Part shown: in pieces, positions 2,559-12,802 of the stretch
Position numbering within the stretch: position 1 is the stretch's first letter
How the letters are laid out: each line of letters begins with the position of its first letter
IMG/VR virus record: IMGVR_UViG_3300045970_001057
Direction: 5' to 3' (one strand)
DNA: 12,802 nt
DNA from: a virus
Notes under the pieces: model-generated
What the model saw: only the letters and a program-made list of their open reading frames with translations
What the model was told of the DNA's origin: nothing
Databases searched by the model: none
Position numbers and translations under genes: made by a program

Positions 2559-2577
2559 ATATCTCTTTGTTTTAGTA

Positions 2578-2610
2578 GTACAAAGATACGGATAATATTT
2601 GATATATTAT
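2578..2610 (-). promoter_or_regulatory. Promoter. The gene-strand core is GTATCTTTGTAC, containing a -7-type box TATCTTTG, plus a conserved upstream block (TATATCAAAtatTaTCCG)
   Basis: The 12-mer GTACAAAGATAC lies at 2578-2589 on the plus strand. The gene's ATG at 2558 is 22 nt downstream of the box. The element recurs with the same geometry at four other gene starts. Confidence 0.6.
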
Positions 2611-2788
2611 AATTTTTTACCACATTTTTGAAATTAATTCAAAGCAATATGGATGTTTTGGAAATGGTATGCTATATATCTTAGAGTATATAAAACAACT
2701 TCAATTATCCAAAGTGGACTAAAAAATAATACAATAAATATAATGATAGATGCAATTCTTCTTATAATAATTTCCAAATTTAGATTTT

Positions 2789-3250
2789 TCATTTGAATAT
2801 TTTATTAGGATCATAGATATTTTTCATCCTATCAGTATAAATTTTAACGATATCTCGTTTATCTTCATCTTTTGTTAAAATGCCAACAATATATGGAGTT
2901 AAAAAACTCATAGCAATTCTATCATTTATAAATTTAGAATAATATTTAGAAGCTTCATCAAACTCTTTATTTTCAATAAGTTCAAAAACCTTAATAACAT
3001 TTTTTCGCAATCTATATTCCTTAATTTTCTCTTTATAAAGCTTTAACTTATAAAGATTTCTATAACGCATAAGATCCATAATACCTGCTGACATAGCAAA
3101 TAATAAACCAAAAATGGCAAATATAGGATGGTTAAATTGCTCAATAACTGAAATTAAAATACATAACAAAAAATTTATAACACACGTCCAAGTTCCTATA
3201 TTCCAAATTTTTACAAGTAATTTAATACTTCTTTTTTCTGTTGCATTCAT
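2789..3250 (-). CDS. Hypothetical integral membrane protein with two predicted TM helices and a soluble C-terminal domain of about 90 aa
   Basis: 153-aa ORF with an ATG start. It lies 12 nt downstream of the 3263..3670 gene. The hydrophobic stretches are IGTWTCVINFLLCILISVI and IFAIFGLLFAMSAGIM. Confidence 0.75.
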   Translation of the reverse strand: MNATEKRSIKLLVKIWNIGTWTCVINFLLCILISVIEQFNHPIFAIFGLLFAMSAGIMDLMRYRNLYKLKLYKEKIKEYRLRKNVIKVFELIENKEFDEASKYYSKFINDRIAMSFLTPYIVGILTKDEDKRDIVKIYTDRMKNIYDPNKIFK

Positions 3251-3262
3251 AATTATTTGAAT

Positions 3263-3670
3263 TTATTTTGGTTCCTTATATGTCAAGCCACCAAACCTAT
3301 AATCGGTGGTTATTTTTAGTGCTGAACGTATAGATTCTGCTGTAAATTTGAAACCTTTACCATTTTCATCAACAGCATTTACTGGGAATTTTGGAGCTTT
3401 TGTATTAAGTTCGGTGATTGTGAAATTGACACCTCTGTTTGTGAAGGTTTTACCGATAATGTCTTCTGGCAAATTAAAAATTTGATAAATATAAGAGTCG
3501 TATTTTTTAACTGCATTTACAACTTCAACTTTCATCTTCATTGTGAAGTCATTTTCATTTAATGTTCCACCATTATTTTTAATGGTTACACCGTACTTTT
3601 TTGCGATGTTTTCTAATGCGATTTGTGATTCTTCTGCGATTTTCTTGGCTAAGTTTTTATCAAATGACAT
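3263..3670 (-). CDS. Hypothetical protein, 135 aa
   Basis: ORF with an ATG start. The conserved promoter element lies 28 nt upstream. Confidence 0.75.
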   Translation of the reverse strand: MSFDKNLAKKIAEESQIALENIAKKYGVTIKNNGGTLNENDFTMKMKVEVVNAVKKYDSYIYQIFNLPEDIIGKTFTNRGVNFTITELNTKAPKFPVNAVDENGKGFKFTAESIRSALKITTDYRFGGLTYKEPK

Positions 3671-3695
3671 AGTATATGTGTTTAATTGTTTAACA

Positions 3696-3726
3696 GTACA
3701 AAGATAAGGAAAAATTTTGATATACC
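3696..3726 (-). promoter_or_regulatory. Promoter. The gene-strand sequence is TTTG-N19-TATCTTTG-TAC, preceded by the conserved upstream block
   Basis: GTACAAAGATAA lies at 3696-3707 on the plus strand. A TTTG sits 19 nt upstream of the box on the gene strand, spaced as a Bacteroidetes -33 element would be. The ATG at 3670 is 28 nt downstream. Confidence 0.6.
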
Positions 3727-3729
3727 AAA

Positions 3730-5211: not shown

Positions 5212-5232
5212 TTGTCTATATTTTTAATTAGA

Positions 5233-5244
5233 GTACAAAGATAC
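5233..5244 (-). promoter_or_regulatory. Promoter core GTATCTTTGTAC (gene strand) for the zinc-ribbon gene cluster
   Basis: GTACAAAGATAC lies at 5233-5244 on the plus strand. The ATG at 5211 is 24 nt downstream. The upstream block is less conserved than at the other copies. Confidence 0.55.
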
Positions 5245-5293
5245 TGCTTTTTATTCAAAAGAAAAAATTAATATATAATTAAAAAATAAAATT

Positions 5294-5827
5294 ATGGAAC
5301 TAATACCTAGCACTAAATTAAAGCCAGAAGACTTTGTTGGATTACTCTATCCTTTTGCAGAATCAACACAAAATGAAACTGGTATATCAGCAATAGCAAT
5401 TTTGGCACAAGCCGCACTAGAGAGTGGCTGGAATTCATCTTCACCAGGTTGGATGTTCTTTGGAGTTAAAGATACTGATGGAATTAATGGAAATGAACAA
5501 TTATTAACAACCACAGAATATAGTCGTAGAGCTGACTTAAAATTTCCTCAAATAATATCAGTAACACCAACAGTAAGAAATGGTCAAAAATATTTCAAAT
5601 ATGTTGTTAAAGACTATTTTAGAAAATATGAATCACCAGAAGAATGTTTTACTGATCATGCAAATTTTCTTATTAGAAATCCAAGATATTCTGCAGCATT
5701 AGAAGTTAAAGAAGATCCTATTGCATTTATAAATGCAATTGCAGTCGCAGGATATGCGACTGATCCAAATTACGCTAAAACACTTACATCTATTTGTAAT
5801 AGAATAAGTGGAATACTTAATTCATAA
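5294..5827 (+). CDS. Peptidoglycan hydrolase of the GH73 glucosaminidase family (mannosyl-glycoprotein endo-beta-N-acetylglucosaminidase domain). Candidate endolysin
   Basis: AQAALESGW matches the catalytic-Glu region of the FlgJ/AcmA type. GYATDPNYAKTL matches the C-terminal hallmark. The protein is 177 aa, consists of the single domain and has no signal peptide. Confidence 0.8.
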   Translation: MELIPSTKLKPEDFVGLLYPFAESTQNETGISAIAILAQAALESGWNSSSPGWMFFGVKDTDGINGNEQLLTTTEYSRRADLKFPQIISVTPTVRNGQKYFKYVVKDYFRKYESPEECFTDHANFLIRNPRYSAALEVKEDPIAFINAIAVAGYATDPNYAKTLTSICNRISGILNS

Positions 5828-12287: not shown

Positions 12288-12802
12288 AGAAATTAAAATT
12301 ATTTGAAGATTTTTTATTAGAGTTTAAGTTGACAACTAACCCTATATCAGATATTAGCGAGTATATTGAAAAAATGAATAAAGGATTAGCGGATAAGTTA
12401 TTCTTTTTTAATAAAGTTGATATAGATACATTGGTTGATTTTGGATGTGCTGATGGCACATTATTAAAAGAGATTCACAAAATGAAACCAGATATGAATT
12501 TAATTGGTTATGATATTGATGATGATATGATTAAAATATCCACAACAAAATATCCAGAAATTAAATTTTATTCTGATTGGAATGATGTGCTACACAACGT
12601 AAATAATAACGCAGCAATATTATTATCATCTGTTATACACGAAGTTTATAGTTATGGCACATCAAGTGAAATTAGAAAATTTTGGAACGAACAAGTATTT
12701 AATAATAAGTTTAAGTATGTTATTATTAGAGATATGATACCTTCAACATCTTTTGATAAAATGAATTTGATTGATATTAAAAAGATAAGAGAAAAATCAG
12801 AT
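12284..12802 (+). CDS. Class I SAM-dependent methyltransferase, N-terminal 173 aa, truncated by the window edge
   Basis: The frame is open from the ATG at 12284 to the end of the window. Motif I is VDFGCADGTLL. An acidic beta-2 motif LIGYDID follows about 20 residues later, then a hydrophobic strand AAILLSSVIHEV. It is missing from the ORF track only because no stop codon falls inside the window. Confidence 0.6.
   Translation, partial: MKKLKLFEDFLLEFKLTTNPISDISEYIEKMNKGLADKLFFFNKVDIDTLVDFGCADGTLLKEIHKMKPDMNLIGYDIDDDMIKISTTKYPEIKFYSDWNDVLHNVNNNAAILLSSVIHEVYSYGTSSEIRKFWNEQVFNNKFKYVIIRDMIPSTSFDKMNLIDIKKIREKSD

Follow-up and report, generated by a model that had tools for sequence, protein, structure and literature searches.

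The window analysed here, a 12,802-nt (12.8-kb) stretch of viral DNA from IMG/VR record IMGVR_UViG_3300045970_001057, has a GC content of 27% and contains ~21 ORFs separated by short intergenic gaps, with intergenic DNA contributing 802 nt (6.3%). A repeated motif, GTATCTTTGTAC, marks five near-consensus promoters within the window, and each of these would drive one of five minus-strand transcription units that follow one another and carry small accessory genes, HicB-like, SIS-domain and cREC_REC-domain proteins being among the downstream products (Table 1). Hairpin terminators separate two of the units, and the promoter of the 142-aa gene is located in an 82-nt divergent intergenic region which it has in common with the endolysin gene. 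The 119-aa protein encoded at 6115-6474 on the minus strand matches Pfam cREC_REC (cyclic-phosphate processing receiver domain) at 1.6e-23.

The carrier is a member of an uncultivated jumbo-phage lineage. No nucleotide match to the window was detected by megablast among INPHARED phages. The 802-aa protein (6751-9159, minus strand) is homologous to the eukaryotic Major Vault Protein over almost its full length, matching Pfam MVP_shoulder (1e-26) and Vault_3 and aligning colinearly with MVP chains in the PDB (residues 423-586 vs 439-608, E 1e-10); an exact look-up did not find this protein on record and none of the PHROG families matched it. Used as a query, it recovered 16 IMG/VR loci, several of them on contigs of 200-500 kb. 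LR756500 and LR756501 (735-kb genome) encode homologs with about 49-52% identity to it, the protein being conserved in the 462-kb and 735-kb LR7565xx genomes. The 735-kb genome is that of a Mahaphage, and Bacteroidetes are the predicted hosts of this clade (PMC7162821). Close relatives of the window, L121/L129 and L122, show 92-95% protein identity and are syntenic with it, yet mosaic. Searches with Rfam in the window and with ARAGORN in four relatives found nothing.

Table 1. Predicted promoters and associated features of the window. PWM scores are those of the external matrix trained on unrelated phage loci; L121, L122 and L129 are close relatives.
Feature	Position	Strand	Elements and predictions	PWM score (bits)	Relatives and neighbours
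Predicted promoter of 253-aa gene (ATG 2558)	2576..2611	-	box TATCTTTG 2581-2588; TCAA 2599-2602 (~−26); predicted start ~2576; predicted leader ~18 nt	27.6 (top score of the window)	box kept in L129 ortholog
Predicted promoter of 135-aa HicB-like gene (ATG 3670)	3694..3729	-	box TATCTTTG 3699-3706; TCAA 3717-3720; −33 TTTG 3726-3729 (19-nt spacer); predicted start ~3694; predicted leader ~24 nt	25.1	near-identical in L129, L121 and L122
Predicted promoter of 142-aa gene (ATG 5211)	5231..5266	-	box TATCTTTG 5236-5243; block variant TTTTGAAT; predicted start ~5231; predicted leader ~20 nt	21.9	TAT(A/C)TTTG kept in L129 and L122 orthologs
Predicted promoter of 119-aa cREC_REC-domain gene (ATG 6474)	6494..6529	-	box TATATTTG 6499-6506; TTAA 6517-6520; predicted start ~6494; predicted leader ~20 nt	23.0	adjoins terminator hairpin 6526-6555
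Predicted promoter of 57-aa gene (ATG 9911)	9912..9947	-	box TATCTTTG 9917-9924, 5 nt before ATG; predicted start 9911-9912; predicted mRNA leaderless or with 1-nt leader	23.2	
13-bp hairpin followed by T-run	6526..6555	.	predicted terminator of the preceding minus-strand unit (802-aa and 59-aa genes)		directly before the 6494-6529 promoter
Second-class signal	9950..9976	+	T-run, TATATATA (9965-9972), 4 nt, ATG 9977; distinct from the motif of the five boxes		counterpart in the same divergent region as the 57-aa gene promoter
Second-class-like box before endolysin gene (ATG 5294)	5268..5293	+	TTAATATATAAT, related ATATATAA box		conserved in L129 and L122

Sequence and placement of the five boxes

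A search with the 12-mer GTACAAAGATAC, allowing at most one mismatch, gave five matches in the window as compared with 0.06 expected from dinucleotide-preserving shuffles. Exact copies are present at 2578 and 5233 and copies with a single mismatch at 3696 (GTACAAAGATAA) and 6496 (GTACAAATATAC). A preliminary description of this DNA had listed five copies as exact or differing at one position, which applies to these four; the copy at 9913 (GAGACAAAGATAC) has two mismatches to the 12-mer, with TATCTTTG intact at 9917-9924. The fifth match, absent from that description, is a one-mismatch copy at 8581 inside the 802-aa gene, and it is without the G of TTTG, as the gene strand reads TATCTTTC. Using TAT(C/A)TTTGT, five boxes are detected on the minus strand, all five intergenic and each in the sense orientation relative to the next minus-strand ATG. 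Because the intergenic share of the window is 6.3%, the probability of five intergenic boxes out of five is ~1e-6 under uniform placement. Distances from the G of TTTG to the ATG are 22, 28, 24, 24 and 5 nt for the sites at 2578, 3696, 5233, 6496 and 9913, respectively, the range of 5-28 nt given previously, and the motif does not occur at a similar density in coding DNA, the finding that would have spoken against a promoter role.

Chance repetition in AT-rich DNA, with no function attached, might be considered given the 27% GC of the genome and the 24 occurrences of the loose TAnnTTTG pattern in coding DNA of the window. This explanation is scarcely credible against the excess of matches over expectation, the exclusively intergenic and sense placement, the conservation of the sites in relatives and scores with an external matrix, described below, that are far above the shuffle maximum.

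All five sites, reading TATCTTTG or TATATTTG, fit the −7 element in its stricter form TAHHTTTG, in which G is excluded from the two middle positions. A −33 TTTG, expected about 19-20 nt upstream of the box, was observed at one of the five sites (3726-3729), TTTT or TATA occupying this position at the other four. Four of the copies carry an additional upstream block, which reads ATATCAAA in the 2578 and 3696 copies and TATTTAAA in those at 6496 and 9914; in its place TTTTGAAT is found at 5233. When the box is placed at −12 to −5, the T-run falls at −20 to −16 and (A/T)T(C/T)AAA at −29 to −22 in four of the five sites. Both features noted earlier, a TTTG located 19 nt before the box at 3696 and an extra block in four of five copies, are present, and sequence and placement agree with the original identification of the motif as the Bacteroidetes sigma-A −7 box at gene starts. 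Sigma-70-type −35/−10 sites are not enriched, 94 being found as compared with 87.9 expected.

The −33/−7 promoters of sigma-ABfr or sigma-A were defined in Bacteroides fragilis, and genome-wide maps exist for Flavobacterium johnsoniae, F. psychrophilum and B. thetaiotaomicron. The primary sigma factor of Bacteroidota recognises TAnnTTTG at ~−7 and TTTG at ~−33; in F. johnsoniae the −7 box reads TAHHTTTG and lies 4-5 nt from the start site, the −33 element is weak and is surpassed in strength by AT-rich motifs, centred at −18 and −28, which are observed in uninfected cells (PMC6847099). AT-rich motifs near −18 and −28 are likewise found at the window sites. In F. psychrophilum, for which ~1,000 mapped promoters are listed (Table S2 of PMC9723704), the box occupies −12 to −5, likewise 4-5 nt from the start site, three sigma-A motif variants with 5′ and 3′ extensions are distinguished, and TTTG at −33 is confined to the most highly expressed variant, SM2, from which it follows that this element is dispensable. 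In F. psychrophilum 5′ UTRs have a median length of 24 nt and leaderless transcripts account for 5.5% of mRNAs (PMC9723704), while B. thetaiotaomicron has a modal 5′ UTR of 23 nt with ~3.7% of 5′ UTRs shorter than 10 nt. Our literature search found nothing specific on promoters of Bacteroidota phages.

The window sites resemble Bacteroidota sigma-A promoters in the TAHHTTTG box, an apparently optional −33 TTTG, AT-rich motifs spaced one and two helical turns from the −7 box on its upstream side, and predicted A-rich leaders of ~20 nt without a Shine-Dalgarno sequence. They differ from the mapped promoters in being on a phage rather than a chromosome and in an unusually close fit to the consensus, which extends to nearly all spacer positions, T(C/A)AAA at ~−26 and TA(C) after TTTG among them; in addition, one site predicts a leaderless transcript.

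Two upstream signals in the lineage

Enrichment of 8-mers was determined by comparing the 60 nt upstream of all called genes with coding DNA in seven non-redundant loci of the lineage. The most enriched upstream 8-mer is TATCTTTG, with 15 upstream and 6 coding occurrences (14.6-fold), and its overlapping neighbours rank immediately after it. The next independent 8-mer is TATATATA, enriched 9.3-fold. As these are the two most enriched independent upstream 8-mers, two classes of upstream signal are real, in line with the earlier proposal of at least two promoter classes. The k-mer ATCTAAG is enriched upstream of genes because tandem paralogs end alike: several consecutive small genes at L126 8780-9130, L134 6030-8380 and L128 600-2940 have identical ends, GATATTGAAAA(A/T)TATCTAAGAAAAAAGAAA, a pattern which indicates a tandem paralog family with a conserved C-terminus.

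In the lineage, distances from the class-1 box, TAT(C/A)TTTG, to the ATG cluster at 18-28 nt, in agreement with typical host 5′ UTRs (modal 23, median 24 nt), with two further cases at 4-5 nt. Orthologous promoters of L129 and L122 strictly retain TAT(C/A)TTTG while the TAC extension and spacer drift (Gtag, Gtgc, Gtaa, Gtga, Gaat); the conserved TAC after TTTG is generic only in part. In the 42 kb surrounding the 802-aa homolog of LR756500, boxes of either class are few. At L123 17970-18010 (+), GGGAGATAGCTCAGTTTGGTTTAGAGCGCA is positioned 9 nt after a class-1 box and resembles a tRNA 5′ half; no tRNA was detected at this position by ARAGORN or Rfam.

As originally noted, no −7 box precedes the plus-strand genes at 5294 and 9977. 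The 802-aa gene also is without a full box, as had been stated; the 'degenerate copy' attributed to it is not a copy. None of the relatives carries a −7 box at this position, and the gene has a conserved TATAAAT-containing leader. The second signal consists of a T-run and TATATATA exactly 4 nt before the ATG and is found at 9977 in the window and at six further gene starts in relatives (L129 12963 and 8980; L122 19581, 8996 and 586; L126 1150). The 7-mer ATATATA occurs at this 4-nt distance at 11 gene starts. The geometry is that of a −7 box with a leaderless start and predicts leaderless mRNAs. Both divergent intergenic regions, 5212-5293 (82 nt) and 9912-9976 (65 nt), contain a leftward class-1 promoter and a rightward TATATA-type box. 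The TATATATA class is a candidate for a phage-controlled, possibly late, promoter class, and genes other than those of the five units may be served by a signal of this type.

Generality of the upstream block

The preliminary description considered conservation over ~30 nt to exceed the requirements of a host sigma factor and suggested a co-regulated temporal class or a binding site for an extra factor, such as a phage-encoded regulator, as possible reasons. The distribution of the block was compared across viral and bacterial sequences. A viral scan with TCAAA-N9-TATCTTTGTAC returned at least 120 stretches on mostly unrelated contigs of 22-55% GC and, among the matches listed, most also carry TTTG(G) at −33, which the search pattern does not specify. 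A contrasting scan with the 14-mer CCGTATCTTTGTAC, from which the block is absent, gave mostly chance matches with no upstream signal. In a scan of bacterial genomes with TTTG-N19-TATCTTTGTAC, Bacteroidota account for 52 of the 80 matches listed, and some spacers are almost equal to those of the window, such as TTTGtgtatatcaatattttccgTATCTTTGTAC from a Bacteroidales MAG. The chromosomal set obtained in this manner is biased to gut Bacteroidales and its spacer profile is weak; a positional profile of all strong −7 boxes in the scanned loci, excluding the search seeds themselves, is more informative than the plain chromosomal profile.

In the seed-excluded profile, TTTG peaks at −24/−23 from TA and TCAA shows a sharp peak at −14. 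The latter was observed in 19 cases in unrelated phage loci as compared with a background of ~3 (Poisson 5e-10) and in 5 cases as compared with ~1 in Bacteroidota chromosomes, and TCAA and the −33 TTTG occur together in 13 of the 19 (odds ratio 13.7). At ~−26 from the start, the TCAA peak (L137-L254, unrelated IMG/VR loci; L255-L334, Bacteroidota genomes) is more sharply defined than the 'AT-rich' motifs published for −18 and −28. In 66 independent phage promoters, with offsets counted from the T of TA, the consensus is T at −14 (0.77), C or A at −13, A at −12 to −10 (0.70, 0.80 and 0.64), A at −8 (0.70) and T at −7 to −3 (~0.6), a spacer consensus equal to the pattern of the window.

A PWM covering offsets −19 to +10 was trained on 62 promoters from phage loci without similarity to the lineage and applied to both strands of the window. 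The five sites occupy ranks 1-5 with scores of 21.9-27.6 bits, as compared with 11.1 for the next-best position and a maximum of 18.1 in 50 shuffles. With the PWM restricted to the spacer (−19 to −1), the five spacers score in the 99.75-100th percentile relative to all positions in the window. Since the block is generic and a matrix trained on unrelated phages ranks the five sites at the top, no extra factor is needed. The proposed phage regulator is thus not upheld, the extended conservation being matched by the published AT-rich motifs and −7 extensions and by a spacer consensus present in unrelated phages and in chromosomes.

A specific form of the regulator hypothesis can be modelled on phage T4. 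At T4 middle promoters the MotA box is centred at ~−30, some 12 bp upstream of the sigma-70 −10 element, and the sigma factor is appropriated by AsiA and MotA. A phage-encoded activator binding the T(C/T)AA block at ~−26 could, in the manner of a MotA box, replace the missing −33 contact and define a separately timed class. The geometry is comparable, as a conserved block is present ~10-12 bp upstream of the downstream element and most sites are without a canonical upstream hexamer; in the four of five sites that are without a −33 TTTG, the block is retained and its distance to the −7 box is constant at 9-10 nt. In addition, some huge phages encode AsiA-like proteins or sigma factors of their own (PMC7162821). 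However, unlike the MotA box, the block of the window is generic to uninfected Bacteroidota and unrelated phages, occurring at the same register in many such phages (22-55% GC) and in Bacteroidota chromosomes, it accompanies the −33 TTTG rather than replacing it, and it fits the AT-rich motifs described in uninfected F. johnsoniae (PMC6847099). A phage-specific box substituting for the host upstream element, the hallmark of T4-middle-type promoters, is therefore not what is observed. A Pfam scan of 20 of the 21 called ORFs of the 12.8-kb window, namely all except the truncated ORF 12284-12802, detected no sigma, anti-sigma or MotA-like domain and no MotA or AsiA homolog. Because the block is generic, accompanies the −33 element and is found in a window in which the scanned ORFs have no such domain, an activator of this type is improbable.

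The same data raise the possibility that T(C/A)AAA-N-A-TTTTT, at ~−26 to −16, is a third, separate element of Bacteroidota promoters with a sequence specificity of its own, recognised by the polymerase or sigma factor or acting through an A-tract/T-tract bend, and that phages carry a near-consensus form conferring very strong promoters without a −33 element. We advance this proposal tentatively and with more doubt than conviction. The published description of such a spacer signal has so far been the looser one of AT-rich motifs at −18 and −28 (PMC6847099).

Transcription units and their probable control

The five elements are very probably promoters for the host RNA polymerase carrying the Bacteroidota primary sigma factor (sigma-A/sigma-ABfr). 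Their sequence match and position, enrichment upstream of genes, conservation in relatives and the generality of their spacer consensus are direct observations, from which we infer the polymerase used, together with the start sites and timing. TAT(C/A)TTTG would constitute the −7 element spanning −12 to −5, and transcription would initiate 4-5 nt after the G, giving leaders of 18-24 nt that are A-rich and have no Shine-Dalgarno sequence in four units (18, 24, 20 and 20 nt) and a leaderless mRNA in the fifth, that of the 57-aa gene. The upstream block would represent the AT-rich spacer pattern that strong Bacteroidota promoters have in general, with T(C/A)AAA at ~−26 to −22 and a T-run at ~−20 to −16, and the −33 TTTG retained at a single site would be dispensable, as it appears to be in Flavobacterium.

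T4 early promoters, which are strong sigma-70 promoters with an extended consensus and are often found beside stem-loops, provide a second comparison. As in T4, near-identical, near-consensus host-type promoters precede short units composed of small accessory genes, they have a longer consensus than the average host promoter, and they are located beside terminator hairpins and at mosaic junctions. Unlike in T4, the sigma family and sequence are of the −7/−33 and not the −10/−35 type, and early timing is a prediction here. It is suggested by the probable use of the host polymerase together with the nature of the genes, and a common temporal, early class for the five sites is plausible; they most likely form a host-polymerase-dependent, probably early, class.

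The junctions themselves raise the possibility of another role, in which the extended similarity would be retained mainly as the repeats are recombination and cassette boundaries, comparable to the promoter-stem-loop repeats of T4-type phages, promoter function being additional. L122 is without window positions 2574-3283, comprising two genes and the 2578 promoter, and the junction coincides with the 3′ edge of the promoter; L129 has an extra 256-aa gene directly after the 6496-type promoter (window 6491-6495 vs L129 12928-13745), the promoter which a terminator hairpin adjoins. Furthermore, the site pairs 2578/3696 and 6496/9914 are more alike than the consensus requires, for which duplication or an added layer of control could be the source. 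The junctions observed number only two, however, and junctions in intergenic regions are expected in any case, since selection disfavours breakpoints within genes. Conservation coincides exactly with the positions that define the generic promoter consensus, and no additional common sequence was found. As a principal explanation for the conservation, a boundary function is therefore unlikely, although less so than an activator; given that two mosaic junctions fall at promoters, these may secondarily act as cassette boundaries alongside their role as host-type promoters.

Combined, these results do not introduce a new regulatory principle, the extended conservation corresponding to the normal, little-publicised spacer signature of Bacteroidota promoters. 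The near-consensus sequences could serve as strong promoter parts for Bacteroidota genetics. Within the window, five predicted host-polymerase transcription units are marked out, together with a second, probably phage-controlled, class. The promoter type, the missing Shine-Dalgarno sequences and one gene in common with Mahaphages point to Bacteroidota as the probable host phylum, and the promoter grammar would thereby tie this uncultivated jumbo-phage lineage to a Bacteroidota host.
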